In this document: in pieces, positions 3,470 to 58,347 of the stretch
Numbering within the stretch: the stretch's first letter is position 1
Layout: every line of letters starts with the position of its first letter
Assembly (NCBI GenBank): GCA_026195275.1
Contig: JAPHQU010000004.1
Coordinates: 3,119 to 67,118, forward strand
Source: Minisyncoccota bacterium
GTDB taxonomy: Bacteria > Patescibacteriota > Minisyncoccia > Phycocordibacterales > JABMNX01
Direction: 5' to 3'
DNA length: 64,000 bases
Notes under the pieces: generated by a model
Database searches by the model: none
What the model was told of the DNA's origin: nothing
Seen by the model: the letters and a program-made list of their open reading frames with translations, nothing else
Position numbers and translations under genes: made by a program

Positions 3470-4000
3470 ATGAAACTAAAGATATCAAAAGTTCAAAGTA
3501 TGCTGATCGGAGCAATCCTCGGAGCGGTAATTGCTCTTGGAGTATACGGCTTCTTATTTTTTGAGATAAAAAATAAGAATAACCAGGCCTCAATCCTCCA
3601 GAATCAACTCGATATTGAGATCAGGAAGGATCAACGACTCAGGTCAATCAAACAGCTCTTGAGTGAACTCCATGTCGAGGTTGATACGGTCGATAGATAT
3701 TTTGTAGGTGCTGACGAGGTGGTCGATTTTCTTGAGGAACTCGAGTTGCTCGGAAATATTGCTGATGCTTCAGTGGAGGTAAATTCAGTAAGCGTGTCAG
3801 AAGGTGGAGAGGCTATTCCATACGAACACCTGCGTGTAGAATTTCACACGCAGGATCGGTGGGTAGACCTGATACACATTGTCTCTCTTTTGGAGACGAT
3901 GCCATACGGAGTACGCATTGAACGTTCCCAGATTGAGCGTGTACCAAATTCAACCCTTTGGCAGGCACACATCATTTTCACAGTGTTAAAGCTTAAGTAA
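3470..4000 (+). CDS. pilO: PilO-like pilus assembly protein
   Basis: 176 aa with an N-terminal TM helix, a coiled-coil and a C-terminal domain. Third gene of the pilMNO cluster. Confidence 0.55.
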   Translation: MKLKISKVQSMLIGAILGAVIALGVYGFLFFEIKNKNNQASILQNQLDIEIRKDQRLRSIKQLLSELHVEVDTVDRYFVGADEVVDFLEELELLGNIADASVEVNSVSVSEGGEAIPYEHLRVEFHTQDRWVDLIHIVSLLETMPYGVRIERSQIERVPNSTLWQAHIIFTVLKLK

Positions 4001-4004
4001 GTTT

Positions 4005-4337
4005 ATGAATATAGAAACGATACAAAAAGAGATAAAGAGATACGCATCATTCATGACACTCGCGAGTATAAGTTCACGACCACGCGTCTATCTTCATTGG
4101 GAGATTATCCTTATGGTATTTGTAGTATTCAATATCTTCATGCTCTTTTTTAGTGGATATTTATTCCTTCAAGTAAACAGCGGCACGATCTTTTTAGTCG
4201 AGCAATCGGGACAAGTCCGGGTAGAGAGTGTTGACCGCAGTGAAATGCAGGAGGTTCTCACTTCACTTGAGGGAAGAAGTGCACTCTTTGAACAAAGAAA
4301 GAGTGCGGGGGTGCGTATTGCTGATCCGTCTCAGTAA
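4005..4337 (+). CDS. Small membrane protein of the pilus cluster (PilP-like?)
   Basis: 110 aa with one TM helix, translationally coupled to pilO. No recognisable motif. Confidence 0.4.
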   Translation: MNIETIQKEIKRYASFMTLASISSRPRVYLHWEIILMVFVVFNIFMLFFSGYLFLQVNSGTIFLVEQSGQVRVESVDRSEMQEVLTSLEGRSALFEQRKSAGVRIADPSQ

Positions 4338-4455
4338 TATAGACAGTTTCAAAAAAGTCTGTTCCCGTGTATAGTGTGGGTGCACTCGTAGTCCCAATGT
4401 AAAGTCGGGGTTTCGACCAAAGCGTCGGGATTCAATGGTCTCCAGCACTACAATT

Positions 4456-4527
4456 GCTTCTGTAGCTCAAAGGATAGAGCAGCGCTCTTCTAAGGCGTTG
4501 ATCCTGGTTCGAGTCCAGGCAGAAGCA
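4456..4527 (+). tRNA. tRNA-Arg (anticodon TCT)
   Basis: GCTTCTG acceptor, TAGCTCAAAGGATAGAGC D-arm, anticodon stem GCGCT/GGCGT with loop CTTCTAA, T-arm CCTGG-TTCGAGTC. No CCA. Confidence 0.8.
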
Positions 4528-4575
4528 CAGTAAAAACAAAAGAATCCAGTCTGATAAGACTGGATCTTTTTCTGG

Positions 4576-4649
4576 TGGGCGCTGAGGGATTCGAACCCCC
4601 GACCTACCCGGTGTAAACGGGTTGCTCTAGCCAACTGAGCTAAGCGCCC
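4576..4649 (-). tRNA. tRNA-Val (anticodon TAC)
   Basis: Reverse complement GGGCGCTTAGCTCAGTTGGCTAGAGC...ACCCG-TTTACAC-CGGGT...GGGGGTTCGAATCCCTCAGCGCCCA. Confidence 0.85.
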
Positions 4650-4728
4650 TCTTTGTGGGTACGCATTATAGTACCCCATTTTTCTACTTTTTCAACTTCT
4701 TCTGGTATTTCACCTACTTTGCACTACA

Positions 4729-5016
4729 ATGCGTATAATGGAAAATCAAGAGATTACCTGTAAGATAACGGGGAAAGTCCAAATGGTTATGTTTCGTGAT
4801 TTTGTGCAGCGCCACGCGCGTTCGCTCGGGATTCGTGGTACGGTAGAAAATCTGGACGATGGCTCGGTTGAGGTGGTCGCACAGGGGAGCGAGGACAAGC
4901 TCAAAAAGCTTATAGAGCACCTCCATAAAGGGCCGTTTCTCGCACGAGTGCTTCGGGTGGACACACGATGGCGGGAACCAAGTGGAGAGTTTGATAGTTT
5001 TAGTATTTTATATTAG
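4729..5016 (+). CDS. acyP: Acylphosphatase
   Basis: 95 aa; ITGKVQMVMFRDFVQRHARSLGIRGTVENLDDGSVEVVAQG matches the acylphosphatase signature (VQGVxFR...GxVxNxxDGSV). Confidence 0.85.
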   Translation: MRIMENQEITCKITGKVQMVMFRDFVQRHARSLGIRGTVENLDDGSVEVVAQGSEDKLKKLIEHLHKGPFLARVLRVDTRWREPSGEFDSFSILY

Positions 5017-7349: not shown

Positions 7350-7361
7350 CAATGGTAAACA

Positions 7362-7393
7362 AAAACGACAAGTTGCAACTTGTCGTTTTTGTT
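7362..7393 (+). terminator. Rho-independent terminator after tRNA-Leu
   Basis: AAACGACAAGTTGCAACTTGTCGTTTTTGTTT hairpin plus U-tract. Confidence 0.7.
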
Positions 7394-7463
7394 TAGAACG
7401 CAATTTGCATTGCGTTCGTGCCATTGTGCCAGGCGGAGGCATGTCCCGAGCTGTGAGAGGGAA

Positions 7464-13558: not shown

Positions 13559-13582
13559 GGGTTAAATAAAGAGGAAACATAA

Positions 13583-13618
13583 AAACACAACTCGCGCTTT
13601 CACGCGAGTTGTGTTTTT
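13583..13618 (+). terminator. Rho-independent terminator after rplK
   Basis: AAAAACACAACTCGCGctttcaCGCGAGTTGTGTTTTT. Confidence 0.75.
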
Positions 13619-13682
13619 ACATTCCCGTATGGTACCGTTCCATCAGAAATAAATTGTTCCTAGACACAGAAAGGATAGACTC

Positions 13683-18322: not shown

Positions 18323-20026
18323 ATGATCGAGGAGAAACTCATTAACTTAGTGCGGAGCGCGCTCACTGAGCTCGGCATTGAAGCAGAAGACATTAAACTG
18401 GAACACCCAGCGGACCTCTTTCATGGGGATTTTTCTTGTAATGCGGCGATGGTGCTCGCGAAAGAAGCAAGGAAGAGCCCACGCGAGCTCGCGGAAGAGA
18501 TCGTACGATATATCGAAGAAAATAAGCCAAGTGAGGTTGAGAAGGTTGCGGTTGCAGGTCCTGGTTTCATAAACTTCGATCTCTCACGAGAATTTTTCAT
18601 ACAGAACGTTCGTGATGTGCTCGAGGCAGCTTCGGTGTGGGGGAGAAATGATGCACTCAAAGGCAAGAAAGTAATGGTCGAGTACACTGACCCGAATCCA
18701 TTCAAAGTTTTCCATATAGGGCACTTAATGAGTAACGCCATTGGTGAGTCGGTCTCGCGTCTCATTGAGTTTTCTGGCGCGGAAGTGAAGCGGGCGAACT
18801 ACCAAGGTGACGTCGGACTCCATGTTGCAAAGGCGATCTGGGGGCTGAAAGAAATAGATGCACCAATTGAGAGTGTTGAGATGCTTGGCAAAGCATACGC
18901 AGCAGGAGCTGTAGCATACGAAAGTAATCCTGTAGCAGAAAAAGAGATTAACGAGATCAATCGCGAAGTATACGAGCGAAGTAATGAGGAAGTGAATGTT
19001 CTTTATGACACTGGGCGCACACTCTCGCTCGAGCATTTTGAAGAGATATACAAAAAGCTTGGCACAAAATTTGATCACTATTTCTTCGAGAGCGAAACGG
19101 GTCCTCTTGGTAAAGAGATCGTTGAAGAGTATTTATCGAGTGACGCCAGCGCAAAAGATTCTGTTTTCAGAGAGAGTGATGGTGCTGTTATTTTTGATGC
19201 CGAAACCCACGACCCATCCCTCCACACACGTGTGTTCCTCAACTCAGAAGGATTACCAACCTACGAAGCTAAGGAGCTTGGTCTTCTCAAGAAAAAGAAT
19301 GAAACATATCCATTTGATATTTCAATCACCATTACCGCGGAAGAGCAACGAGAGTACTTTAGAGTAGTTAAAGAAGCGATGAAACAGATATTTGGTGAGC
19401 TTGCAGAGAAGGTGGCGCACCTCACCCACGGCACGCTGCGGCTTACGAGCGGCAAGATGTCGTCGCGTACCGGGGACGTGATCAGTGGTGAGTCGCTCGT
19501 CAATGACGTGGAAGTCGAAGTCGAGAAACGCATGGGCGCATTCAATGTTGAGGGGGTACGAGAGACTGCAGAATCAGTCGCGGTTGCGGCGATTAAATAC
19601 TCAATCCTCAAACAGTCGACTGGACGAGATATTATTTTTAACCCTGAGCAAGCACTCTCCTTTGAAGGAGACTCCGGACCATATCTGCAGTACACAAACG
19701 CACGCATCGGCTCGCTCCTGGAGAAGGCGAGAGAGAGCGGAGTTGAAGTTGGCATCTCGACACCACTTCCTCAGGCAACCGATGTTGAACGTTTACTGTA
19801 TCGTTTTCCTGAGGTGGTGCGCCGTGCCACTGAGAATTATGAGCCACACTATATTACCAACTATCTCACCGAGCTCGCCGGAGTATTCAACAGTTGGTAC
19901 GGGCAAGAAAAGATACTCGACGGTACACCCGAGGTGTCGTATCGTCTTGCTATCGCGCACGCGGTTTCGACAACTCTCCAAAACGGACTTTGGCTTCTTG
20001 GTATCAAAGCGCCGGAGCGAATGTGA
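18323..20026 (+). CDS. argS: Arginyl-tRNA synthetase
   Basis: 567 aa; HIGH region PNPFKVFHIGHLMSNAIG; overall ArgRS architecture. Confidence 0.9.
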   Translation: MIEEKLINLVRSALTELGIEAEDIKLEHPADLFHGDFSCNAAMVLAKEARKSPRELAEEIVRYIEENKPSEVEKVAVAGPGFINFDLSREFFIQNVRDVLEAASVWGRNDALKGKKVMVEYTDPNPFKVFHIGHLMSNAIGESVSRLIEFSGAEVKRANYQGDVGLHVAKAIWGLKEIDAPIESVEMLGKAYAAGAVAYESNPVAEKEINEINREVYERSNEEVNVLYDTGRTLSLEHFEEIYKKLGTKFDHYFFESETGPLGKEIVEEYLSSDASAKDSVFRESDGAVIFDAETHDPSLHTRVFLNSEGLPTYEAKELGLLKKKNETYPFDISITITAEEQREYFRVVKEAMKQIFGELAEKVAHLTHGTLRLTSGKMSSRTGDVISGESLVNDVEVEVEKRMGAFNVEGVRETAESVAVAAIKYSILKQSTGRDIIFNPEQALSFEGDSGPYLQYTNARIGSLLEKARESGVEVGISTPLPQATDVERLLYRFPEVVRRATENYEPHYITNYLTELAGVFNSWYGQEKILDGTPEVSYRLAIAHAVSTTLQNGLWLLGIKAPERM

Positions 20027-27780: not shown

Positions 27781-27793
27781 TCAATGGTATATA

Positions 27794-27821
27794 AAATCCT
27801 TGAATTAATTCAAGGATTTTT
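27794..27821 (+). terminator. Rho-independent terminator
   Basis: AAATCCTTGAATTAATTCAAGGATTTTT. Confidence 0.7.
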
Positions 27822-35137: not shown

Positions 35138-35170
35138 AAAAAAGACTTGATTCGCTAGAATCAAGTCTTT
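35138..35170. terminator. Bidirectional terminator (also serves convergent recA)
   Basis: AAAAGACTTGATTCGCTAGAATCAAGTCTTTT. Confidence 0.65.
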
Positions 35171-35186
35171 TCTTAAGATCCAATCT

Positions 35187-36588: not shown

Positions 36589-38844
36589 CTACCCTCGTCC
36601 TCTTTCGCCTGATTCATTCTCATCAACGTTCTCATAATCTTCTTCCTCTTCGGTGTCATAGTCTTCTTCTGGCGCTTCGTAGGACTCTTCAGTATCGTCT
36701 GTGCCGACAAGAATATCGCGCGGTTTTGAACCGTCTGCTGAGCCGATCACACCGCGCTCTTCAAGCATGTCCATAAGGCGCGCGGCACGCGCATAGCCAA
36801 CTCGAAGTTTTCGCTGGAGGTATGAGGTTGATGCTTTGCCCGCTTCAACAACGACATGGTACGCGTCTTCGTAGAGGTCGTCTTCGTCGTCGCTACCGTC
36901 AATCGTCGTCGCGAAGATCGAGTTGTCACCCTTTGCTTCGGTGAGATCGATTTCGCTTGGGAGTTCGTCTTCATAGTTTTTAGCGAGGAAATTTGCAACC
37001 TTCTTCACTTCATTCTCTGAGAGGAATGGTGACTGGATGCGGCGCGGCTTCGACATCTCGCCGGAGAGGTAGAGCATGTCACCGGCGCCGAGAAGCTTCT
37101 CGGCGCCGCCGGTATCAAGGATGGTGCGTGAGTCGATCTGGCTCGCGACCTGAAGCGCGATACGGGTCGGTACGTTTGCTTTGATAAGCCCGGTAATAAC
37201 CTGGACTGACGGACGTTGTGTCGAGAGGACAAGGTGGATGCCGACCGCACGGCTCATTTGAGCAAGGCGCACAATACCAGCCTCGAGCTCTCGTGGGTAG
37301 GTCTGCATAATGTCCGCGAGCTCATCAACAACAACGACGATATAGGGCATTGGCTCAGGCATCTCTTCTTCAGAAAGGTTTTTCTTCACTGCAGGTGCGA
37401 CCACGTTCTTGTGGTATGAGGCAATATCGCGCACCGACTCTGACTCAAGGATGTCGTAGCGTCGATCCATCTCGTTTGCGAGCCACTTGAGCGCAAGAAT
37501 AGTCTTCTTTGCATCAGTAATGACCGGAGTAAGGAGGTGTGGGATGTTTTTGTAGAGGGTAAGTTCAACACGCTTTGGATCGACCATTATGAGGCGGAGA
37601 TCCTGTGGTGACTTGCGGTACAGTAACGACATGATGAGGTTGTGGATCATCACCGACTTACCAGAGCCGGTGGTGCCGGCAATCAAGACGTGCGGCATCT
37701 TTCCTAGATCAGCAAAGTGCGATTCTCCGGTGATGTCGCGACCAAGTGCGACGAGGAGCGGTTTGTCGGTATCTTTGAAGTCACTTGCCGACAGAAGGGA
37801 AGCGAGCCCAACGGTTGATTTTGAATGATTTGGCACCTCGATACCCACGAGCGACTTGCCGGGGATTGGTGCCTCAATACGCACCGGGTGCGCAGCGAGG
37901 GCGAGTTCGAGATTATTTTGGAGTGTGAGGATCTTTGAGAGGCGTACACCTTCGGCGGGCTTAAGCGCGTAGCGGGTGACTGTCGGCCCGACAGATATTT
38001 CATCCATCTCTACGTTAATGCCAAAGTTCTGTAGCGTACGCTTGATGATGTTTGCGTTTGCTTTCACATCACCAACATCAGGCTTGCCTTTGTCTTTCTC
38101 GAGGAGTGAGAGTGGGGGAGTCTCGTAGTCGCCGTAGACCGGGTAGACTGATATCTCACCCTTTTTCTTACTGAAGCCAAACATACCTCGCTTCGGCTCG
38201 TCTTCAACCTCTTCATCTTCTTCTTCGTATTCTTCCTCATCTTCGTACTCCTCTTCAGGCTCATCTTCGTACTCCTCATCTTCGTCTGCGTAGGTCTCGA
38301 CATCGTACTCCTCATCTTCTTCTGTGGCTTCATCCTTACGTGAGAGGAGGCGTGAGAGGAGTGGAAGGGAAGACGGAGTTGGGAGGAAGTCGAACATAAT
38401 AACGAGCGAGAGAAGAGTGACCACTACGAGCACCAAGACGCTCGCATAGGTATCAAAGAGTGCGATAAGTGGCAGTCCAATAAAATGCCCCAAAATACCG
38501 CCGCGGCCGGGGAGTGCGATATCGATAAGCCCAAGTCCGGAAAAAAGAAACAAGACAGCGCTGATGATCTTAAGTGGTCCGTATGCATGCTCTAAGTCAC
38601 GAAAGAACGATGTCGCAAAGAAGAGGAGCACTGCTGGCAGCAGGAAGTAGCCAACACCGAGAAGGAATGAGAGTCCGCTGTAGGTCATCTCCCCTGCGAT
38701 CCCGGCAAGGTTGAATGCGGCAAGAATAAAGAAGAGCGTGACCGAGAGGAAGACGATGCCCCAGATGCCGCGGACAGTCTCTTCTTTTAGTTCAGCAAAA
38801 ATATTTGAATATTCGGATTCCTTTTTCTTTTTTTTTGGTGCCAT
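36589..38844 (-). CDS. ftsK: DNA translocase FtsK/SpoIIIE with a highly acidic linker
   Basis: N-terminal TM region, acidic linker EEDEEYDVETYADEDEEYEDEPEEEYEDEEEYEEEDEE, motor domain with GTTGSGKS Walker A, and a C-terminal gamma wHTH. Confidence 0.9.
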   Translation of the reverse strand: MAPKKKKKESEYSNIFAELKEETVRGIWGIVFLSVTLFFILAAFNLAGIAGEMTYSGLSFLLGVGYFLLPAVLLFFATSFFRDLEHAYGPLKIISAVLFLFSGLGLIDIALPGRGGILGHFIGLPLIALFDTYASVLVLVVVTLLSLVIMFDFLPTPSSLPLLSRLLSRKDEATEEDEEYDVETYADEDEEYEDEPEEEYEDEEEYEEEDEEVEDEPKRGMFGFSKKKGEISVYPVYGDYETPPLSLLEKDKGKPDVGDVKANANIIKRTLQNFGINVEMDEISVGPTVTRYALKPAEGVRLSKILTLQNNLELALAAHPVRIEAPIPGKSLVGIEVPNHSKSTVGLASLLSASDFKDTDKPLLVALGRDITGESHFADLGKMPHVLIAGTTGSGKSVMIHNLIMSLLYRKSPQDLRLIMVDPKRVELTLYKNIPHLLTPVITDAKKTILALKWLANEMDRRYDILESESVRDIASYHKNVVAPAVKKNLSEEEMPEPMPYIVVVVDELADIMQTYPRELEAGIVRLAQMSRAVGIHLVLSTQRPSVQVITGLIKANVPTRIALQVASQIDSRTILDTGGAEKLLGAGDMLYLSGEMSKPRRIQSPFLSENEVKKVANFLAKNYEDELPSEIDLTEAKGDNSIFATTIDGSDDEDDLYEDAYHVVVEAGKASTSYLQRKLRVGYARAARLMDMLEERGVIGSADGSKPRDILVGTDDTEESYEAPEEDYDTEEEEDYENVDENESGERGRG

Positions 38845-38880
38845 CTCTTAGATTTTATTATGAGTGAAGCGAATTAAAAA

Positions 38881-38951
38881 ATCTTAGACCCCGTGAAATG
38901 CGCCGGCTCGCCGGCGCACCTCCGCCCAAAGGCGGAGGATTTCACTGGGGG
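38881..38951 (-). ncRNA. Conserved structured leader module in the ftsK 5' UTR (three-way-junction-like; paralog of the rplJ leader module at 50916..50975)
   Basis: On the ftsK sense strand: CCCCAGUGAAAUCC-[hairpin]-[hairpin]-GCAUUUCACGGGGUCUAAGAU. The outer 11-bp stem and flanks are identical to the rplJ copy; inner hairpins differ but still pair (covariation). Confidence 0.55.
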
Positions 38952-38978
38952 TTGGTTCATGTTTTATACAGATTTTCA

Positions 38979-40048: not shown

Positions 40049-40078
40049 AAAACCGCCGCAGGGTTTGCGGCGGTTTTG
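40049..40078 (+). terminator. Rho-independent terminator
   Basis: AAAACCGCCGCAGGGTTTGCGGCGGTTTT. Confidence 0.7.
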
Positions 40079-44397: not shown

Positions 44398-44430
44398 GCA
44401 AAAACCCCCTACTTCGGTAGGGGGTTTTTG
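44398..44430 (+). terminator. Rho-independent terminator
   Basis: AAAACCCCCTACTTCGGTAGGGGGTTTTT. Confidence 0.75.
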
Positions 44431-44466
44431 CGTTGCCATTTCTCCCTTCTCACACACCTTCCACAA

Positions 44467-44495
44467 AAATCTTGACGTCGGACGTCAAGATTTTT
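44467..44495. repeat. REP-like palindrome copy 1: AAAATCTTGACGTCGGACGTCAAGATTTT
   Basis: Perfect 11-bp inverted repeat around a central G, with A/T flanks. Four copies lie within 2 kb around a RAYT gene. Confidence 0.8.
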
Positions 44496-44589
44496 GTACA
44501 TGAAGGGTGGTTAAGGGTGATTTTGTGTGCATTGCATGGCGCGTGCGTTTCCCATACAATGTCTTCATATGTTCAATCAGGAAAACACT

Positions 44590-45354
44590 ATGAAAAAGAA
44601 TCTATTTATTGGCGCAGGTGTAGTGGCGTTGCTTGTGCTCGCAGCTGCCGGCTACTGGTACATGAAAGCGGGGGATACCACTACTCCACCAGAAGACGGC
44701 ACTACCGTCATCGAAGGAGGGGAGAATCGCATTGAGTTTGATGACACGCTTATCGAAAAGGTCGCACATCCACCGCTCGATCGCACCGTTGCCTTTTCAT
44801 CAACTCTCCCCCAGGATGCGCGTACTGCTCTTGAGACCAATATTGCGAAGCTTGTGGGTCAGCTCGAGGATGACTCGGAGAACTATGGTGCATGGCTCGA
44901 CCTTGCACTTATGTACAAGACGTCAGGTGACTACGAAGGTGCCGTTGAGATCTGGGAGTACATCGCGCAAGTGGTCCCCGGAGAATCAGTCTCGTACCAC
45001 AACCTCGGCAACTACTACCACCACGAAGTGGAAGATTTCGTGACCGCAGAGTCATACTTCAAGCAGGCAATCGAGCGAAATCCCGGTCAATCGATTCACT
45101 ACCAGGCACTCTTTGAACTCTACCGATACTCGTACAAGACCGACACTAACCTTGCAGAAGAGACTCTTAAAGAGGGGATTAGTGCGGTAGGGAATAGCAT
45201 CGACCTTCTCATCTCACTTGGGCGTTTCTACAAAGAGACCGGACGAACTGAGGAGGCTAAGCAGACGTACCTCGAAGTGCGGAGTAAAGCAGAGGCCGCT
45301 GGCAATGAGAACTTGGTGCAATCGGTTGATGCTGAGCTAGAGGGTCTCTACTAG
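44590..45354 (+). CDS. TPR-repeat protein with N-terminal signal/TM anchor
   Basis: MKKNLFIGAGVVALLVLAAAGYWY, then TPR-like helices (GAWLDLALMYKTSGDYEGAVEIWEYIAQ...). Confidence 0.6.
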   Translation: MKKNLFIGAGVVALLVLAAAGYWYMKAGDTTTPPEDGTTVIEGGENRIEFDDTLIEKVAHPPLDRTVAFSSTLPQDARTALETNIAKLVGQLEDDSENYGAWLDLALMYKTSGDYEGAVEIWEYIAQVVPGESVSYHNLGNYYHHEVEDFVTAESYFKQAIERNPGQSIHYQALFELYRYSYKTDTNLAEETLKEGISAVGNSIDLLISLGRFYKETGRTEEAKQTYLEVRSKAEAAGNENLVQSVDAELEGLY

Positions 45355-45547
45355 GAAGATGAAACCGCTTACAAACACAACCTTCTTCAAATTCCTCTTC
45401 GGCTTTCTTGCGCTGCTTTTCTTGAGCTTCATCATAACCGGCGCTGTCGCCCACTTCGCAGGGGACAGTGTCGACCCGGCCACTCAATCTGCCTGCGACC
45501 AAGGCAGCGACTGTTGATCCGCTCTGCTTCATTACCTTATTTCACAC

Positions 45548-45576
45548 AAAATCTTGACGTCCGACGTCAAGATTTT
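45548..45576. repeat. REP-like palindrome copy 2 (central C, i.e. opposite orientation)
   Basis: AAAATCTTGACGTCCGACGTCAAGATTTT. Confidence 0.8.
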
Positions 45577-45635
45577 TTCTTCCCTTTCTATTATGAAGAT
45601 ATCAGCTAGGTATTAACTGTAGGATATGTCTAATC

Positions 45636-46328
45636 TTATTCCAGAGTAATTCCTTCCAACTCGCTCATTATGGACCTGGACTTGAGCAATGCGCGCATTT
45701 GTTTTTCATAGCCCTCCTCGCCCCCGAGGAGATCAAGAAAGAACTTTCGATCTGTGATAGAGGGAAAATTCTTTTTTCCTAAGTAGTCGGAATGACTCGA
45801 CCAACGATATGATTGTAGATACTCCTCTGCTTCTCTACAGTTTGAAAGACTTCCTTTACGCCACTTTGGCATATTTAGATCAAGTGGGTTGAAGTGTATG
45901 TAAAAAGGAAGATAGAGAAAGTGTGCATCAGTGGCAATTTCGACCTTTTTATATTTTCCTTGCCACAGTGCGCCGTTACGTTCGTATTTTTCATTAAATG
46001 CTTTGGTGTATCCGCCACCGAGTTTTTTCATGAATAGCGACAAATTTTCCATATCATCATCAATAGGGGAGACAAGAAGATGGTAGTGATTCGGCATTAA
46101 ACAGAAACAATGAATCTGCACCACTGGCTCGCGTCTTTTTTTCCAAGAATCTTGACGTCGGACGTCAAGATTCTCTGATGATGCAAGGTGGTGTTTGGTC
46201 AGTCCGTTCGAACTTTGCTTATTGTTGAATTCATATAAATCGTGCAAGAACCGCACGCGATCCTTGTCGTTAAGGAAAACCTTTCGTTTATCAACGCCGC
46301 GGTTATATACATGAAAGAAACGCGTCAT
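45636..46328 (-). CDS. REP-associated tyrosine transposase (RAYT; IS200/IS605 TnpA-like Y1 HuH)
   Basis: Motif I FHVYNRG, HuH motif MPNHYHLLV, and catalytic region GALWQGKYKKV...YIHFNP...SYRWSS. Confidence 0.8.
   Translation of the reverse strand: MTRFFHVYNRGVDKRKVFLNDKDRVRFLHDLYEFNNKQSSNGLTKHHLASSENLDVRRQDSWKKRREPVVQIHCFCLMPNHYHLLVSPIDDDMENLSLFMKKLGGGYTKAFNEKYERNGALWQGKYKKVEIATDAHFLYLPFYIHFNPLDLNMPKWRKGSLSNCREAEEYLQSYRWSSHSDYLGKKNFPSITDRKFFLDLLGGEEGYEKQMRALLKSRSIMSELEGITLE
46147..46173. repeat. REP-like palindrome copy 3, located in frame inside the RAYT coding sequence
   Basis: GAATCTTGACGTCGGACGTCAAGATTC, translated in the RAYT frame as ENLDVRRQDSW between motif I and the HuH motif. Confidence 0.75.
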
Positions 46329-46447
46329 ATAAATAACTCTAGCATGATATACACAGCATAATTGAGCTATCTATTAACACAGATGCTTGATGTGATGGGT
46401 ATAATGCCTAATACGAAATAAAACGAAATAAAATCTTGACGTCCGAC

Positions 46448-46476
46448 GTCAAGATTTTTTGTGAGTTATGAACATC
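46448..46476. repeat. REP-like palindrome copy 4 (central C), upstream of RAYT
   Basis: AAAATCTTGACGTCCGACGTCAAGATTTT. Confidence 0.8.
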
Positions 46477-47154: not shown

Positions 47155-50100
47155 ATGCGTAACCTTTGGATAGTTTTTATACTTCTTCTCTTACTCAATC
47201 CTGGCGTATCGCTTGCAAATTGTAGTGAGGACGGGTCCACGGTTGTTTATGTTAATGGGATTTTTACAGGATTGGGAAAAGCAAAAGATGACCTCGGTCT
47301 TTTTGGTAATCTGTATAGTATAAGAAATCCCAAAGATAAGGTTTCTTTCATAAACGGCTACAACCCATCTCATTTAGCCGGTCTTGGGGATGCGGTACAG
47401 GTTGTCTCGCAAGCGATGGGGTCGTCGGTTAATAGTTATGACCTCAAGACGATCTTGATGCAGATTCACTCTGAGGTGAAAACGCGAAAGATACTTCTGG
47501 TTGGGCACTCGCAAGGTGCCTTTTATACAAATGAACTTTACGGTTATCTCACTGAGCACGGCGTTCCAGAAGAATCAATAGCTGTTTATAACCTCGCCTC
47601 GCCAGCGGGGTTTGTTGCAGGGGAAGGGTCTTATCTCACTTCAGCAAATGATGGTTTAGTAAATAACGTGCGCGAGTGGACAGCTGCTGTGGGTATACAA
47701 AATCCACTTCCGGCAAATATCCTCATCCCACTTGCGCGTCCGGAGCTCGATGAGCTCTTACGCGGACATTCGTTCAGTGAGGAGTATCTGGCAGGCGCGG
47801 CGAAGACCATCATCGCCGACATTACTGAGTCACTCAACTCCCTTGGTTTAGAGGATGAAACTGTCGAAAGTGAAGGGTGTTTTGACGCGCCTGCAGAGGA
47901 TTTCTCATATCAGATGCAACACACAGTTTTTGCCATGGTAGACCCTGCCGCACAGATAACACAAGAGGTTGCGGCCGCGGCGGGAAGGGCACTTGCGGCA
48001 GTTGGTGTTGCTATCACTCAGATCATTGGTGGAACGGGCATTAGCGCGGGGGACGACGCTTCACAACAAGATAGCCTGGGCACAGACAATGATTCATCAA
48101 AAACAATTTTTGAGCTCGTTCTCCCGCCTGTGCCTAATGAGGTCTTAATAAAACTTGCTGCGGCAAGTACCGATGATACCGGCGAAGACACAACACAGCA
48201 AAATTCTGATGACGACGCTCTCTATGATTCTGATACTTTGTCTGTTTCTGAGGGTGAGTCAGGTAGCTCGGATACATCGAGGACACAGGGTGAAGAGAGT
48301 GTAGAAGCTCCGTCCGAACCACGAATTGACTACGGTGGTGGCACACCGAAGATAGACTACAGTAGCAACACAGGCGATGAGCAAAATGTTGTCGGAAGCG
48401 AAGACGAGGTCGGTGATGATGAGGGCGATGAAGACAGTGAGGGTGATGCGGCAGACGAAGGAGAAGATGATGGTTCGAATGATGATTCTTCAGAAGGAGA
48501 TGATGGTGGTGATTCTTCCGAGGGCGATGAGGAGGAAGAAGAGGGTTCTGACGAGGGTTCCGAGGATAACGATTCAGAATCTGACGATGAAAGTGACAAT
48601 GAAGACAACGGCAATAATGAAGATGAAGAAGAGGGTGATGACGAGAACACTGAAGAAGACGACAACGAAGAGAATCAAGAAGGATTTACTGTTGCGTATT
48701 CAGAGGACACGACACAATCTGCAACGAGTACGATTACGTTCTCAGGTACTGGCGCTCCGGGTGATACCATCGCACAAGATTTTTCTGATGAGGTAACGAC
48801 GGTGGATGAGAATGGATTGTGGGAACTCACCGTGACTGATCTTCCGGACGGGGAGACCACTATTATCTTTAGCGAATTAAATGACAATGAAGAGGTGGTT
48901 GATACGGTGAGTATATCAGTGAGTGTTGAGACACCGCTGAAGGGGCTCAGTGTTGCGGAATGTGCGCACTCGCTGCGCACAGACGCATGTCTTCTGGGAG
49001 GGGCGGGGAGCGTGTCGTTTTCGTGGGATTTTGATGAGGGAGAGTTGTACCGCGTGACGCTTAACGGAGCGAGTGTTGAGGAGACAAGCGCGACATCGTC
49101 TTCAGTTACACTTGGGGTTGGTGAACATACGGTTGAGGTTTCCGCGCTTGATGTGGAAGGAAGTATTGCAACCTCGAGCACGCAGGACATTGAGGTGTTT
49201 GAAATGCCAATTGTAATTAATGAGATAGCGTGGGCGGGAACTCAAGCGAGTGCCGCCGATGAGTGGATTGAGCTCTACAACCGCACCAACTACACACTCG
49301 ACCTCTCGCATGTGGTACTTTATGCAGAAGACCTAGTGCCGTACTTGGAACTTGCGGGACCAGTTGCATCAAAGAGCTACTATCTCATTGAGCGTGGCGA
49401 CTCGAATACAACGAGTGCCGCTGAGGATATTGTGCTGGCATTTAGTGGACAGGGAAGCGGTAGTGGGCTCTCAAACAGCGGCGAGGTGCTCTATCTCGCG
49501 CAGGCTTTTGGCAGTATTGCAACAACGACACTTGACCGGACGCCCGACCTTGCTTCGTGCGGCGGTGGGTGGTGTGGCGGCGATGCGAGCAGCAAGACGT
49601 CGATGGAGCGCAAGGATGTCGATGTTGCGGGAGACGATCCGTCGAACTGGAATTCAAATAATACGTATACGGTGAATGATACCGATGAAGCCGGTGGAGT
49701 GATGTACTGCACACCAAAGTCACAGAATAGTATCTCCATTCTCACAGTTGGTTACTATTGTCCGAATGAGACTGAGAGTTATGTTGCTGGGCAAGCGTAT
49801 ACGCCGGTGAGTGGCACGTGCACATATCTCTCGGAGAATCTTTCGGGGAACCGGTATGGCGATTTGTACCGCGGAGTGGTTGGGAGCGCGACAATCGTGA
49901 ACGGACACTCGCTTGGAACAAACCCTTCGAGTACCCAGAATAATGACAGTGTTGCTGACCCGGTCGACGGCGAGAATATGTTTGCGGCAATGTATGAGAT
50001 TCATGATAATAGCGACGTCGCGAACTTCAGGAGTTTCTTCCAGATGGGTTCTAATCCGCCGCCGCATCTCTGGTATGGAATTGTTCCGTGGGTATATTTG

Positions 50101-50271
50101 GTACCAGCAGAGGAATCGTCGGGTGGTGAATCAAATGATGACGACACGGACTCTGATGATGAATCTGATCCAGAATCATCAGGTGGAGATTCTTCTACGC
50201 CACCGGGAGGACCAGGAGGACCGCCGAGTGGCCCACCTGGCGGGCCGGGAGGACCTGGTGGCCCTTTCTAG
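47155..50271 (+). CDS. Giant secreted protein: N-terminal alpha/beta-hydrolase (lipase-like, GHSQG) + acidic low-complexity region + lamin-tail domain (LTD) + Pro/Gly-rich C-terminus
   Basis: Signal peptide; LLVGHSQGAF nucleophile elbow; D/E/S/G-rich linker; IVINEIAWAGTQASAADEWIELYNRTNYTLDLSHVVL is a canonical LTD signature; C-terminal PPGGPGGPPSGPPGGPGGPGGPF. Confidence 0.7.
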   Translation: MRNLWIVFILLLLLNPGVSLANCSEDGSTVVYVNGIFTGLGKAKDDLGLFGNLYSIRNPKDKVSFINGYNPSHLAGLGDAVQVVSQAMGSSVNSYDLKTILMQIHSEVKTRKILLVGHSQGAFYTNELYGYLTEHGVPEESIAVYNLASPAGFVAGEGSYLTSANDGLVNNVREWTAAVGIQNPLPANILIPLARPELDELLRGHSFSEEYLAGAAKTIIADITESLNSLGLEDETVESEGCFDAPAEDFSYQMQHTVFAMVDPAAQITQEVAAAAGRALAAVGVAITQIIGGTGISAGDDASQQDSLGTDNDSSKTIFELVLPPVPNEVLIKLAAASTDDTGEDTTQQNSDDDALYDSDTLSVSEGESGSSDTSRTQGEESVEAPSEPRIDYGGGTPKIDYSSNTGDEQNVVGSEDEVGDDEGDEDSEGDAADEGEDDGSNDDSSEGDDGGDSSEGDEEEEEGSDEGSEDNDSESDDESDNEDNGNNEDEEEGDDENTEEDDNEENQEGFTVAYSEDTTQSATSTITFSGTGAPGDTIAQDFSDEVTTVDENGLWELTVTDLPDGETTIIFSELNDNEEVVDTVSISVSVETPLKGLSVAECAHSLRTDACLLGGAGSVSFSWDFDEGELYRVTLNGASVEETSATSSSVTLGVGEHTVEVSALDVEGSIATSSTQDIEVFEMPIVINEIAWAGTQASAADEWIELYNRTNYTLDLSHVVLYAEDLVPYLELAGPVASKSYYLIERGDSNTTSAAEDIVLAFSGQGSGSGLSNSGEVLYLAQAFGSIATTTLDRTPDLASCGGGWCGGDASSKTSMERKDVDVAGDDPSNWNSNNTYTVNDTDEAGGVMYCTPKSQNSISILTVGYYCPNETESYVAGQAYTPVSGTCTYLSENLSGNRYGDLYRGVVGSATIVNGHSLGTNPSSTQNNDSVADPVDGENMFAAMYEIHDNSDVANFRSFFQMGSNPPPHLWYGIVPWVYLVPAEESSGGESNDDDTDSDDESDPESSGGDSSTPPGGPGGPPSGPPGGPGGPGGPF

Positions 50272-50895: not shown

Positions 50896-50915
50896 GTAGT
50901 GAATTTAAATCCAAA

Positions 50916-50975
50916 CCCCAGTGAAATCCTGCGCCGTAGGGCGCGGGTGCGTCGCCAAGGCGTCGCATTTCACGG
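50916..50975 (+). ncRNA. Conserved structured leader module in the rplJ 5' UTR (paralog of the ftsK leader module)
   Basis: CCCCAGUGAAAUCC-[GCGCCguaGGGCGC]-[GGGUGCGUCGCCAAGGCGUCGCAUUU]CACGGGGUCUAAGAU. 22-nt and 15-nt flanks are identical to the ftsK copy. This is followed by a hairpin (ATTCGTTACactcGTAACGAAAT) and then AAUCUAAGA-AUG. Confidence 0.55.
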
Positions 50976-51020
50976 GGTCTAAGATTTCGTAATTCGTTAC
51001 ACTCGTAACGAAATCTAAGA

Positions 51021-51512
51021 ATGGCAAAAACAAAACAACAGAAAACAGAAACACTTGAGCAGCTCACTGACGCGGCAAAGAACGCCGGTTCAGTAGTATT
51101 CGTGAACTTTCACGGACTTGGTGTCTCAGAAACCAACGAGATGCGTAGCGCACTCAAAGACGAGGGTGTGACGTATCTTGTGGCAAAGAAGACACTCACG
51201 AAGCGTGCAATCGCGGATGCTGGGGTTGAGGGTGAGGTGCCGGAGCTTGAGGGCGAGCTCGCACTTGCGTGGGGTGACGATCAGATCGCACCGGCGCGTG
51301 GTGTGCAAGAATTTGCCAAGAAGCATAAGGACAGCCTCTCGATCCTCGGTGGTATCTTTGAACACCGACTTGTAGGGAAAGAGGAGATGATCACTATCGC
51401 TTCAATCCCGTCCCTTCAGACGCTTTACGGACAGTTTGCAAATGTCATCAATTCCCCAATCCAGGGATTTGTATTTGCGCTTAACGCGATCGCGGAGAAG
51501 AAGGAAGCATAA
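51021..51512 (+). CDS. rplJ: Ribosomal protein L10
   Basis: 163 aa; L10 pattern and position upstream of rplL. Confidence 0.85.
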   Translation: MAKTKQQKTETLEQLTDAAKNAGSVVFVNFHGLGVSETNEMRSALKDEGVTYLVAKKTLTKRAIADAGVEGEVPELEGELALAWGDDQIAPARGVQEFAKKHKDSLSILGGIFEHRLVGKEEMITIASIPSLQTLYGQFANVINSPIQGFVFALNAIAEKKEA

Positions 51513-53786: not shown

Positions 53787-53818
53787 AAACACCCCGTGCC
53801 TTCGGCACGGGGTGTTTT
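53787..53818 (+). terminator. Rho-independent terminator
   Basis: AAACACCCCGTGCCTTCGGCACGGGGTGTTTT. Confidence 0.8.
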
Positions 53819-54955
53819 GCATAGGGTCCATAAAGAGGGAACCGCACCCTGTTTGTAGGACGCGGCACCAGTTTGCTTCGCTTCAGGTGGCTTCTTGTGA
53901 TTCTCTAAGAATTTCTTTCGCTTGCTTTAGTGTTGTGAGTCCTCCTGAAAGAACCCCACCATCTCACAAGACGGAAGTGTCTTTCTTTAGAGAGTGTTAT
54001 GTAGACTGCGCCTCCCTTGAATGCCATGAAGCTGGTGCACGGTATATTCTAAGGGTCCGAATACTCAGGAATAGCACGGTGTCAGCTGGGTTGTTGACTC
54101 AAAAACCCGCCTCGTGTATACTGCTGTCTACGTGATTATGAGTATTGATTTGAAGAACACCAACAAGCGGGGGCGCTAGCCGGGGCATCGACTCATGACT
54201 AACGCAGCCGCGATCTCGCGGTTTTTTTCTTGCCTTCACTCATAACTGACATCACGAGAACTTTGACAACGTCATAGGATCCATCTGGTCGGAGAGACTA
54301 GGCGGATCCGCAGGTAAAAACAAACCAAGACTAAAACTAAATGTTTACGTGCCGCTGTAAGCAAGCGGCACACACGAGTGTGGCTATGGTTATACTCGTG
54401 TAGCGGTTTTTAGATTTCCTGATAGGAGATCTAAGAGCGTGTGGTGGATACCTAGACTGAAAAAGGCGATGAAGGACGTGGCATGTCTGCGATAAGCTTC
54501 GGTAAGGTGACTAGCAACCTTTGACCCGGAGATTTCCGAATGGGGGAACCCGGCCGACTCTGTCGGTCACCTTTCTACTTGATAGAAGGGAGCGCACCCG
54601 GGGAAGTGAAACATCTCAGTACCCGGAGGAGAAGAAACCAATAGGAATTCCCGTAGTAGCGGCGAGCGAACTGGGACGAGCCCAAACTCGATTTCACCTC
54701 TACCATCTGTGTTTACACAGGTGCTAGAGGTGGTATCGGGGGTTGTAAGGCAACAATGTCATTTTTTCGAAAATGAGAAAAGTTACAAATTGTAATGTTA
54801 ATGGAAGCTTCTGGGAAGAAGCACCCAAGAGGGTAACAGTCCCGTACATGAAAACATATACAACTTTTTTGTTGTTGTCCTTGAGTAGCTCAAGACACGA
54901 ATAGCTTGAGTGAATCTGCCAGAACTAACTGGTAAGGCTAAATACTTTTTCAGAT

Positions 54956-54994
<39 letters not shown>

Positions 54995-56235
54995 GTCCGG
55001 TGAGGACAGTGAAATAGACTTGAAACCACATGCTTACAAGGAGTCAGAGCGGTCGCAAGACCGTCATGGCGTGCCTATTGAAGAATGAGCCAACGAGTTC
55101 ATATATGTTGCAGGCTAAGCCCTTATCGGGTGGAGTCACAGGGAAACCGAGTGTGAATAGCGCGAACCATTATGTAGCATGTATGAGACCCGAAGCTCGG
55201 TGAGCTTGCCATGGGCAGGGTGAAGTTTGTGGAAACACAGATGGAGGCCCGAACCGGGAGGTCGTTCAACGCCTTCGGATGACCTGTGGTAAGAAGTGAA
55301 AAGCTAATCGAACCGAGTAATAGCTGGTTCTCTCCGAAATAGCTTTAGGGTTAGCGTCGTGTGTTCCTGTTGGGGGTAGAGCACTGGCAGGTGTGAATAG
55401 GGGGAAACCTCGTCATTCCTATCAAACTCCGAATACCAACAGTTAATAGCGCGGCAGTTAGAGTCAGGGGGCTAAGCTCCTGTGCTCAAAAGGGAAACAG
55501 CCCAGATCCCAAGTTAAGGTCCCAAAATTCACGTTAAGTGCACTTAAGGAGGTGAGATTTCTCAGACAATGAGGAGGTTGGCTTAGAGGCAGCCATCCTT
55601 TAAAGATAGCGTAACAGCTCACTCATTCAGAGATTTCGCGCCGCAAATGATCGGGGCTAAACGTGATACCGAAACTGGGGGCTTTCCATTCATTCGTGAA
55701 TGGGGAGCGGTAGGAGAGCGTTCTGTTCTGCGATGAAGCCGAAGGGATAACCCACGGTGGAGCGTTCAGAAGTGAGAATGTTGGCACGAGTAACCGCATG
55801 GCATGTGAGAATCATGCCCGCCGAAAGATCAAGGTTTCCTTCGCGATGTAGATCAGCGAAGGGTTAGTCGGGCCTAAGCCGATCCCGAAGGGGGGAGGCG
55901 ATGGACACATGGTTAATATTCCATGACTTTACGAATATGCGATGGGATGACGGAGGGTTGTACTCTGAGCGCATTATTGGATTTGCGTTGGTGCTGTGAG
56001 GGGGTCTCTTAGGGAAATCCGGGAGACACCACCCCAAGCAGAGCGAAAATGGTGCGGTTTCGGCCAATCCAAATTCAGAGGAGCACGCTTCCAAGAAAAG
56101 TCTCTAAGCTTCAGTATTCGTAAAACCGTACCCCAAACCAACACAGGTGATCAGGTCGAGAAGACCAAGGCGAACAAGTGAGTCTTCCTCAAGGAACTCG
56201 GCAAAACAGCGACCGTAACTTCGGAATAAGGTCTG

Positions 56236-56335
56236 CCTGTGCAGCCAATAGAGGAGTTCATGAAGAAAACAAAAGATGAGACATGTCATATATGTATGCA
56301 TATACATGACAACGGGTGCAAGTGTTCGATCGAGA
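56236..56335 (+). other. Expansion segment in a 23S variable helix, closed by a perfect 14-bp helix (CAGCCAATAGAGGA/TCCTCTATTGGCTG)
   Basis: About 85 extra nt relative to E. coli between ...CUUCGG.AGAAGG... and ...ACUGUUUA.CAAAAACACAG. Contains internal palindromes. Confidence 0.5.
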
Positions 56336-56517
56336 GATCGAATCCTCTATTGGCTGCGTAGGCCGCAGCTAAAGAGCCCTGGCGACTGTTTACCAAAAAC
56401 ACAGCTCCCTGCGAACTCGTAAGAGGATGTATAGGGGGTGACGCCTGACCAATGCCAGAAGGTTAAGCACGGATGGTGTGATGAGTTTACTTGTCATGCT
56501 GGGCTGTGTAAGCCCTG

Positions 56518-56564
<47 letters not shown>

Positions 56565-57215
56565 AGTCCAGTAATTTTGGACGTGCACGAATGGTGTAAC
56601 GACTGGGGCACTGTCTCGAGGAAGAGCTTGGTGAAAATGCAATGGCGGTGAAGATGCCGCCTACCTGCAGCTAGACGAAAAGACCCCAGGAGCTTTACTA
56701 CAGCTTGATATTGGGGGTGTGAGTTGACTGCGTAGCATAGATGGGAGACTTTGAAGCGGACCTTTCGGGGATCGTGGAGTCGCCAGTGAAATACCATCCT
56801 TTCAATTTGCATTCTCTAACCTGAACGGAAAAAACGTGTAGGGACAGTATCTGGTGGGTAGTTTGAGTGGGGCGCTCTCCTCCTAAAAAGTAACGGAGGA
56901 GTCTATTAAGGTCCTCTAGGCGCGAATGGAAACCGTGCCGATAGTGTAAAGGCAAAAGAGGGCTTGACTGCAAGGGGTACATCCCGAGCAGGCGCGAAAG
57001 CGGAGCTTAGTGAACCGAGAGTTTCCTTTAGACGGAGCTCGAGATTAACGGATAAAAGTTACCCTGGGGATAACAGGCTGGTATTGCCCAAGAGTCCATA
57101 TCGACGGCAATGTTCGGCACCTCGATGTCGGCTCACCTTATCCTGGGGCTGGAGAAGGTCCCAAGGGTTTGACTGTTCGTCAATTAAAAAGGTACGCGAG
57201 CTGGGTTCAGACCGT

Positions 57216-57526
57216 TGAGAAGTTGAATTTATTTGACTTCTCAACAGTCTGAGTCCACTCTAACGACACAAAATCGAAGTCTTTTCGTTTATTCAATGAG
57301 AATTAATCAATCTAATCACGGCGGCTGGGTGTTTTCGTAACACCTAGTAAAGCTGACTTATATCGGTAAAACCCGAACCCATTCAGGGAGGGCAATACCG
57401 AGGAAACCCCGCACTTGCATGCAAGTGAAGGGGGTCCGTAGAGACTGAACGTCAGTTATCTGCACACTGTAATGGTGTGTCAGTTAAAGCTACAGTCCAA
57501 TGCACGAAGTAATTCGTGAGAACATG
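57216..57526 (+). other. Probable ORF-less group I intron in 23S rRNA domain V (near E. coli positions ~2593-2597)
   Basis: Conserved 23S sequence GGGUUCAGACCGU | ... | CGUGAGACAGGUUGGUC is interrupted by ~311 nt. The insert follows a U, ends in G, starts with a 10-bp P1-like hairpin (GTTGAGAAGT/ACTTCTCAAC), has AGACUG...CAGUCC (P7-like) and a terminal hairpin CACGAAgtaaTTCGTG (P9-like). Confidence 0.55.
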
Positions 57527-57667
57527 CGTGAGACAGGTTGGTCTTAATCTGCTGTGGGCGTCGATCTTTGAGAGGAGTTGTTCCTAGTACGAGAGGACCG
57601 GAATGAACTGACCTCTGGTGTATCGGCTGTCGCGCCAGCGGCACTGCCGAGTAGCTATGTCGGGAAT

Positions 57668-57700
<33 letters not shown>

Positions 57701-57882
57701 AACCTCAAGATAAGAGATCATAGACCCCTAGGAGATGACTAGGTGATAGGCTCTCGGTGTACGCACAGTAATGTGTTTAGCCAAGGAGTACTAATTCGTC
57801 GTACTCCTGTTAGGAAATCTGAAAATCGCTGTAAACAAAAAGTTTGTTTTTACCAACTCAAGTATTCAATGATGGGTGTTTG

Positions 57883-58053
57883 GGGCCGTAGCTCAGAAAG
57901 GTCACACGCTGTTTCTCAGTTCTTTTGGATTGATTTACTCCATGAGCTGCCAACTTAAGGGGTGGGTCAGGAACACGCGTGTGTCGCGAGAGAGCATCTC
58001 GTCTTGGGAAGGTCGCAGGTTCAAATCCTGCCGGCTCCACCAACTTTCTATCA
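57883..58053 (+). tRNA. Disrupted or intron-containing tRNA-like gene: canonical 5' end and 3' T-arm/acceptor end separated by ~100 nt
   Basis: 5' end GGGGCCGUAGCUCAG. 3' end GCAGG-UUCAAAU-CCUGC-CGGCUCC-A-CCA, complementary to the 5' acceptor. No contiguous D/anticodon arms could be folded. Confidence 0.4.
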
Positions 58054-58236: not shown

Positions 58237-58347
58237 GTTCTGGTGATTAATCGCTGAGGAACCACCTGTTCTCATTCCGAACACAGAAGTTAAGCTCAGT
58301 AGAGGCGATGATACTCTTTGATGGGGAAAGTAGCTAGTCGCCAGAAC
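58237..58347 (+). rRNA. rrf: 5S ribosomal RNA
   Basis: CCGAACACAGAAGUUAAGCUC (loop C/helix III) and GGGGAAAGUAGCUAGUCGCCAG. Helix I is extended by a 20-bp precursor stem (58224..58243 pairs with 58341..58360). Confidence 0.85.

Follow-up and report, generated by a model that had tools for sequence, protein, structure and literature searches.

The stretch of DNA analysed here, 64,000 nt from contig JAPHQU010000004.1 of a Minisyncoccota bacterium and referred to below as the window, carries a gene for a Y1 HUH tyrosine-transposase-like protein accompanied by four copies of a perfect palindrome, one of which lies in frame within the gene itself. Our preferred explanation, to which we assign a probability of a little over 0.6, is that the locus is a unit of the REPtron or TIRtron type from a clade specific to the candidate phyla radiation (CPR), consisting of the transposase-like gene and its own cognate hairpin palindromes. 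REPtrons, which are genes for tyrosine transposases associated with repetitive extragenic palindromes (the RAYTs and REPs, respectively) with inverted cognate REPs, and TIRtrons, their equivalent with terminal inverted repeats (TIRs), are established arrangements (PMC2817692, PMC3333891, PMC3733652). The evidence lies in the anatomy of the locus, the family and fold of the protein, the recurrence of a trio of palindromes at related loci, the fixed codon phase of the internal copy, a constraint on the DNA rather than the peptide, and dispersed copies in related genomes. An earlier, sequence-only reading had proposed a REP/RAYT system here; the arrangement of cognate hairpin repeats is indeed that of a REPtron, but the RAYT profile score, the lack of a GTAG-type tag and the perfect stems show that it is not a canonical one.

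The window was searched with the 29-mer AAAATCTTGACGTCSGACGTCAAGATTTT, allowing up to three mismatches and using 100 dinucleotide-preserving shuffles as the control; four matches were found, where none was expected. Three are exact, at 44466–44494 (central base G), 45548–45576 (C) and 46430–46458 (C), and are called copies 1, 2 and 4. The remaining one, copy 3, at 46146–46174 (central base G), is a variant, AGAATC...GATTCT, with two symmetric substitutions, which mirror each other so that a perfect palindrome is retained. Four identical palindromes had originally been described: there are four and each is perfect, but only three are identical, and of the positions given then, 45548 was right, those of copies 1 and 3 were off by 1 and that of copy 4 (46448, the true start being 46430) was off by 18. 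Copy 1 can be extended to a 35-nt perfect palindrome, at 44463–44497. The palindromes are confined, as had been said, to the neighbourhood of the gene; the 64 kb hold no further copy, and a search with the 15-nt core at up to two mismatches gave a single match, at 18808, which is at chance level. When folded as single-stranded DNA, every copy forms a stem of 13–16 bp closed by a loop of 3 nt, with an energy between −12 and −16 kcal/mol (z between −5 and −9), and Rfam gave no family match at the palindromes beyond chance level. This is the only repeated palindrome family in the window. Other palindromes with an A-tract, a stem and a T-tract are all unique sequences that look like bidirectional terminators, and the repeated family has the same outer shape; perfect palindromes of this unique, terminator-like kind, no more than 40 nt long, lie at 7356–7395, 13580–13619, 27793–27820, 35140–35171, 40049–40077, 44398–44431 and 53787–53817.

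The gene is an ORF for 230 aa on the minus strand (45636–46328). On its upstream side copy 4 stands 101 nt from the start codon, copy 3 is within the gene, copy 2 lies 59 nt past the stop codon between convergent ORFs, and copy 1 follows 1.05 kb beyond copy 2, so placed that copies 1 and 2 bracket a gene for a TPR protein (44590–45354; TPR domains by Pfam) and a 52-aa ORF (45359–45517). Around the transposase-like gene, copies 2 and 4 are parts of a 35-nt inverted repeat (45542–45576 and 46430–46464), extended outwards by TCACAC (45542–45547) at copy 2 and TTGTGA (46459–46464) at copy 4, and the gene is thus bracketed as in REPtrons and TIRtrons. The alternating central base had been taken to mark the orientation of the copies. 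The order G/C/G/C along copies 1–4 is real, but we rejected the central base as an orientation marker: copies 2 and 4 are both C-centred and yet mutually inverted according to their flanking TCACA tags, and across related loci the central base is random: of the upstream and downstream copies compared, 11 pairs are inverted by this criterion and 13 are not. Read on the minus strand, copy 4 resembles a terminator, a hairpin with T-rich sequence after it. Between this palindrome and the start codon there is a weak match to a sigma-70-like promoter, TAGATA-18-TATCAT (46344–46373, minus strand); it reflects the consensus alone, and shuffled sequence yields such matches at least as often.

The ORF product belongs to the Y1 HUH transposase family. 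All three motifs noticed in the sequence-only reading (HVYNRG, NHYHLLV and YIHFNP) are present, in the form FFHVYNRG, LMPNHYHLLV and FYIHFNP, and the tail contains YRWSSH; the HUH motif is N80-H81-Y82-H83 and the Tyr motif (Y-I-H-F-N-P) starts at Y143. The protein passes the Pfam profile PF01797 (Y1_Tnp), scoring 26.6 bits where 23 are required (E = 7e-6, residues 70–144). A database search with the 230-aa protein gave 5780 homologues. An identical database protein, encoded on a 67-kb contig, is annotated ‘transposase [Candidatus Pacebacteria bacterium]’, and the next relatives are 55–65% identical (the closest 64–65%), those with names being ‘transposase’ entries from metagenome-assembled genomes (MAGs) of Parcubacteria or Patescibacteria; most homologue clusters are found on one or two contigs each, and the window holds one copy of the gene unit. 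Across 120 homologues H81, Y82, H83, Y143 and H145 are invariant, the window ORF retains every family-invariant residue, and the HUH and Tyr motifs align with those of non-CPR homologues. An AlphaFold2 model, built from a 120-sequence alignment, has a pLDDT of 90.1, and its top Foldseek match in the PDB is 4ER8, the E. coli RAYT with its REP hairpin (E = 8e-5), followed by ISDra2, IS608 and IS200 TnpA, with a probability of 1.00 for all; a profile search against PDB sequences gave weak matches to ISDra2 alone. No Pfam DNA-binding domain was detected in the C-terminal tail of the protein, and no tnpB adjoins the gene in the ORF list of the window.

The family was surveyed at 80 metagenome loci, whose proteins are relatives 45–54% identical to that of the window, together with the locus L091 and the window itself. 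Most of these loci have a perfect palindrome of their own, with a stem of 11–26 bp and a loop of 1 or 3 nt, at three sites: 10–100 nt upstream of the gene, 2–60 nt downstream of it, and internally at about +125 to +175. At 61 of 75 loci the two flanks have at least 12 exact nucleotides in common, and extra local copies are frequent. The sequence-only reading had suggested that the clustering of the copies could mean a recently acquired or low-activity system; since local clustering around the gene is the standard layout of the family, it gives no evidence of recent acquisition, and the low copy number is consistent with what the 64-kb window alone holds. Being shared by most related genes, the layout points to an old variant of the REP/RAYT-type systems rather than to a recent arrival. 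A scan of viral contigs found no relatives.

The internal copy was originally described as interrupting the gene. It does not: it spans codon 52 (second base) to codon 61 (last base), encodes ENLDVRRQDS in an intact ORF that keeps all family-invariant residues, and has a cognate palindrome at the same place in most relatives. The palindrome is centred on the first position of codon R57, and its mirror-image A>G and T>C changes break the A4 and T4 tracts. The encoded residues fall in a flexible loop (41–60, pLDDT ~55) between helix 21–33 and strand 70–77, the only low-confidence stretch in the core of the model. At this position the protein alignment shows DV(G/R)R in relatives, which is GAC GTC (G/C)GA CGT, the same core, the choice of G or R being determined by the central base of the palindrome; among the 120 closest homologues, 53 have DV(G/R)R and 21 have DI(G/R)C, the latter corresponding to GACATC-S-GATGTC. 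The segment +100 to +200 of the gene has at least 12 nt in common with the flanks at 59 of 81 loci, compared with 0–4 of 81 for segments starting at +200 or later. The centre of the internal palindrome lies 53–87 nt ahead of the LMPNHYH codons, and its codon phase is identical in 35 of the 37 loci with an internal stem of at least 9 bp. The codons of the motif are also fixed (GAC 16/18, GTC 7/9 and CGT 14/14, against 27%, 14% and 14%, respectively, elsewhere in the same genes), and the constraint therefore acts on the nucleotides rather than on the peptide. Distant non-CPR homologues (from an R. rubrum plasmid and from Collinsella; 28–35% identity) are without the loop, which amounts to ~31 aa. 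In R. rubrum, GGGTC-N-GACCC palindromes occur at −48 and +5, external to the gene and nowhere within it. The simplest reading of this pattern is that the internal copy would derive from a single ancient in-frame insertion in the ancestor of the CPR clade, followed by concerted evolution with the flanking copies.

At least 27 different cores occur among the related loci, with the copies agreeing within a locus; examples are GACGTC-S-GACGTC, GACATC-S-GATGTC, GACTT-ACG-AAGTC and CGCTGTC-G-GACAGCG. We had also considered that GACGTC, as an AatII site, might reflect restriction-modification, a reading that was dropped because the cores of related loci are quite different. Where cognate copies differ from each other, 87 differences are compensated on both arms; the counts of one-sided and compensated changes are biased by unequal stem lengths, and only the excess of compensated changes is used here. 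In the MAG OFTM362 the outer arms around one 13-nt core are ctgcg/cgcag, attatg/cataat, actgatg/catcagt and atctt/aagat. Such outer arms vary between copies and are nevertheless self-complementary in each, which indicates intrastrand pairing and argues against a duplex site for one regulator. Identity outside the loop is 60.2% for proteins with a shared core and 55.1% otherwise, a difference reached in 0 of 2000 permutations, and the nearest-neighbour protein has the same core in 22 of 59 cases, compared with 8% expected. The distal flanks of the palindromes show a weak C-rich/CA bias, with CAA, CAC or CCA in 27 of 76 distal and 9 of 76 proximal flanks.

Cognate copies are also found away from the gene in related genomes. 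Over 247 kb of flanks, 12 copies are separated from the gene by more than 300 nt, or about 1 per 20 kb near the genes of relatives; three of the 12 are in the second unit of one locus (L036). A scan of genome contigs found the 19-nt core CTTGACGTCNGACGTCAAG in three other Patescibacteria genomes, and none of these matches adjoins a homologue within its own 8-kb block. Matches to CTTGACGTCNGACGTCAAG in Streptosporangiaceae and Dehalococcoidia were set aside as unrelated. Streptosporangium (L001 5519) and Herbidospora (L009 3788) share CTTGACGTCSGACGTCAAG at what seems to be the same intergenic site, ~20–25 nt upstream of a possible start codon, probably an unrelated operator. The MAG OFTM362 has at least nine copies on three contigs, and at its locus of homologue P0008 the upstream, internal and downstream set (the last doubled) is joined by a further three copies in a stretch of 8 kb. 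In the same MAG, two paralogous genes for giant surface proteins (L091 11282, and L002 6774, which is L091 18015) carry the core at a homologous spot, directly preceding an Ig-like domain (DTEAPVIT...NGNNPATI), with outer arms and reading frames that differ between the two; nearby there is a bAvd-like gene, a diversity-generating retroelement accessory (L091 13331–13690).

Judged from translations, several of the dispersed copies lie in frame within housekeeping genes: uvrA (L008 6003 and L006 4992), a tgt-like gene (L008 1704), a tatD-like gene (L003 566) and a prmC-like gene (L005 7352), the last with a second copy encoding SADVRRPQI. Among the dispersed copies in other genes all three reading frames are used. 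The palindrome core occupies two different sites in the uvrA genes of two species; comparison of these two genes showed a net gain of 15 nt at one site and no change in length at the other, and no clean insertion scar. GTAG and CGTC REPs are likewise found within genes, uvrA included (Di Nocera et al., PMC3733652).

Drawing on the analogy of IS200/IS605 TnpA and of E. coli TnpA-REP, we propose that the protein would bind the palindromes when these fold into hairpins in single-stranded DNA, and that DNA would be cut and rejoined at or near the palindromes through the NHYH metal site and Tyr143. The activity of the enzyme, with conversion between copies, would keep the local copies alike and occasionally seed new ones elsewhere; the internal copy would have arisen by an ancient in-frame insertion in the ancestor of the clade and would have undergone concerted evolution with the flanks since. 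The intergenic copies, given their A-tract/stem/T-tract shape, probably act also as terminators or insulators. It is conceivable, but we would not rely on it, that the hairpin lying in frame in the gene functions in cis and has been kept throughout the clade, with enzyme and repeat co-inherited and changing together, and that the system seeds short in-frame palindromes into essential genes of these minimal genomes (uvrA, tgt and tatD). Equally tentative is the more detailed version of this idea, in which the enzyme gene might hold its own substrate as a master or autoregulatory copy instead of a tolerated passenger.

Several points weigh against the REPtron/TIRtron reading. Binding, cleavage, mobilisation and any role of the internal copy are inferred, as is the catalytic link between protein and hairpin. 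Assignment to the RAYTs by profile failed, the NCBIfam RAYT equivalog NF047646 giving 46.8 bits, under its cut-off of 80. No conserved GTAG-like tag or tetranucleotide accompanies the palindromes of related loci. TnpA-REP enzymes recognize their substrates strand-specifically, via the GTAG tag, bulges or loop bases (PMC8266576), and whereas these known enzymes choose a strand by asymmetry, the palindromes here are perfectly symmetric (PMC8266576). The association between protein and core could be explained by common ancestry alone. The other 62.7 kb of the window hold no copy beyond the 2-kb cluster, which leaves mobilisation in this genome unproven. Finally, the dispersed and gene-flanking copies of OFTM362 have only the 13-nt core in common and differ in their outer arms, a pattern that simple copy-and-paste does not explain.

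Comparison with known systems places the protein closest to TnpA-Y1 subclass 2.1, which corresponds to Bertels group 1 or the ‘TIRYT’ proteins (PMC6006769; PMC3733652) and has as its signature NH(Y/F)H, (W/F)Q, Y(I/V)HLNP, an SS tail and a median length of ~238 aa (Table 1, PMC6006769). The window protein, compared by motifs only, has NHYH, LWQ (family consensus LFQ), YIHFNP, YRWSSH and 230 aa, and seems to fit this subclass and not the E. coli-type subclass 2.2. As at TIRYT genes, inverted repeats near the start and stop bracket the gene, and some published TIRs are self-complementary (PMC3733652; PMC6006769); the window protein also aligns with the R. rubrum TIRYT-like protein at 28–35% identity. 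On the R. rubrum plasmid (NC_007641; L092; 194, 911 and 1671) the GGGTC-N-GACCC palindromes flanking the gene are set in 19-nt inverted repeats containing GGGGTCAG, and a third copy lies 0.7 kb upstream. In other respects the window locus differs from the TIRYT systems: the GGGGWSAS motif is absent, the core of the TIR being GACGTC-S-GACGTC, while the R. rubrum homologue has GGGGTCAG; in the CPR clade an extra ~31 aa separate helix A from the HUH strand and carry a third cognate palindrome; and the repeats are long perfect palindromes, dispersed in some genomes, whereas no REP-like sequences have been reported for subclass 2.1 (Quentin et al. 2018, PMC6006769).

With the E. coli-type REPtron (Nunvar 2010; Ton-Hoang 2012; Messing 2012, 4ER8; Corneloup 2021) the locus shares cognate hairpin repeats inverted around the gene, a low-copy and possibly single-copy gene (one in the 64-kb window), enzyme and repeat sequences that vary together, 4ER8 as the best structural match, and same-core repeats elsewhere in related genomes. 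It differs in having symmetric perfect stems without a bulge or a GT(A/G)G tag, in its sub-threshold score with the NCBIfam RAYT model, and in a copy number that looks low. In subclass 2.4, from Cyanobacteria and Bacteroidetes, REPs are found in frame within tnpA-REP genes, between the HuH and Tyr motifs (PMC6006769). There too the enzyme gene contains its own REP, with the frame kept, in a peripheral variable region. However, those insertions vary in length and sequence, and the protein subclass and phylum also differ, whereas here one copy, N-terminal to the HUH motif and 53–87 nt upstream of the motif codons, keeps one phase throughout the clade. The Rickettsia palindromic elements (RPEs), reportedly described by Ogata in 2000, also bear comparison, RPE-1 being said to measure ~100–150 nt. 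Like RPEs and intragenic REPs, the palindrome core is found in frame within housekeeping genes of relatives, including uvrA, a repeated target (PMC3733652), but the elements here are much shorter, at 25–45 nt, and the only intragenic copy in the window is that of the transposase-like gene.

An unlikely alternative is that the ~0.9-kb unit is an autonomous insertion sequence (IS) of the IS200/IS605 type, in which the outer palindromes are subterminal hairpins of its left and right ends and the enzyme moves its own gene rather than small repeats. The hairpins do lie just inside a 35-nt terminal inverted repeat, and the fold matches IS608 and ISDra2 TnpA. One contig (L036) carries two whole units (1071–1942 and 3899–4758), 94% identical and 2.8 kb apart, each with an upstream palindrome, the gene with its internal palindrome and a downstream palindrome; the unit, of 872 nt, reaches 50–60 nt past both outer palindromes, and this duplication keeps an IS-like capacity of the unit in play. 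A second family gene is present within a few kb in 3 of 82 loci. At four further loci (L032, L033, L055 and L075) similarity begins at the upstream palindrome and continues ~120 nt beyond the downstream one, which is ambiguous as a unit boundary; what lies in the overrun seems to be a neighbouring ORF's conserved 3′ end. Against an autonomous IS, the unit is present once in 64 kb, most homologue clusters are on one or two contigs, and the closest relative is only 64–65% identical, while in two pairs of orthologous loci (L064/L078 and L035/L050) the gene has been kept amid conserved flanks with 82–84% DNA identity, which points to vertical descent. Its Tyr motif, Y-I-H-F-N-P, is the class-2 Y-x-x-x-N-P and not the Y-x-x-x-Q of IS200 (PMC6006769), the protein has 230 aa compared with ~150, and there is no adjacent tnpB. 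The internal third hairpin and the palindrome-only copies in unrelated genes would also go unexplained.

We regard as quite improbable that the palindromes are mainly RNA or transcription elements rather than substrates of the enzyme, the intergenic copies serving as bidirectional terminators or insulators and the intragenic copy as an mRNA hairpin that throttles translation. The shape of the intergenic copies, AAAA-stem-TTTT(TT), is that of the many unique terminator-like palindromes of the window; copy 4 is terminator-like on the gene strand, copy 2 lies between convergent ORFs, the downstream copy of the relatives follows the stop codon by 2–60 nt, and the two substitutions of the internal copy remove its A/T tracts. 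Terminators, however, need neither be identical to each other nor match a sequence inside the adjacent gene, and such a role does not account for three copies that change together across at least 27 cores. Essential genes such as uvrA and tgt carry dispersed copies in mid-sequence, where termination would do harm, and Rfam recognized none of the palindromes. Least credible, and in our view very improbable, is a double-stranded operator that a regulator binds as a dimer, this regulator being possibly the protein's own helical C-terminal part, acting in autoregulation. In its favour are the perfect two-fold symmetry, the copies upstream of and within the gene, and the resemblance of subclass 2.1 C-terminal domains to helix-turn-helix motifs (PMC6006769). 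Against it, the arms run to 13–26 bp and are not separated by a spacer, outer arms within one genome vary from copy to copy while remaining self-complementary in each (the signature of intrastrand pairing), the copies within unrelated coding regions are not at promoters, and no Pfam DNA-binding domain was detected in the tail. Neither of the outcomes that the sequence-only reading had named as refuting it was observed: the Y1_Tnp profile is passed, and the palindrome does not behave as a promoter operator.

The REPtron/TIRtron reading would extend systems known almost exclusively from work on Proteobacteria and Cyanobacteria to a large CPR clade, with thousands of proteins mostly annotated ‘transposase’, which would have a REP/RAYT-type system in a distinctive form. 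The distinctive trait is a cognate palindrome whose place and codon phase within the enzyme's gene are fixed, with repeats that are perfect and untagged. That such systems are rarely reported in CPR, as had been remarked, agrees with our literature search, which found no description of RAYT/REP systems in CPR or Patescibacteria beyond a KEGG label. Copies that co-vary over at least 27 cores offer a natural experiment in the co-evolution of a Y1 enzyme with its hairpins and in the recognition of symmetric hairpins. The system is also a candidate source for short in-frame palindromes in essential genes of reduced genomes. In practice, the gain would be a better annotation of ‘transposase’ genes, and caution over palindrome-encoded peptide segments in CPR proteins.

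Some other features of the window may be mentioned. A 134-nt inverted repeat (38822–38955 and 50911–51044), with arms 78% complementary and 12 kb apart, lies at the edges of large ORFs with acidic low-complexity repeats (36589–38844, minus strand, and 47155–50271, plus strand). The 23S rRNA gene (54421–57813) is 3393 nt long, compared with 2925 nt for the Rfam model, and contains ~470 nt of insertions; it is followed by the 5S rRNA gene (58239–58346). Between the 23S rRNA gene and that for tRNA-Pro there is a 158-nt match to the Rfam tRNA model (57882–58039, 36.9 bits), for which ARAGORN made no call; a long insertion or an intron in a tRNA may account for it.

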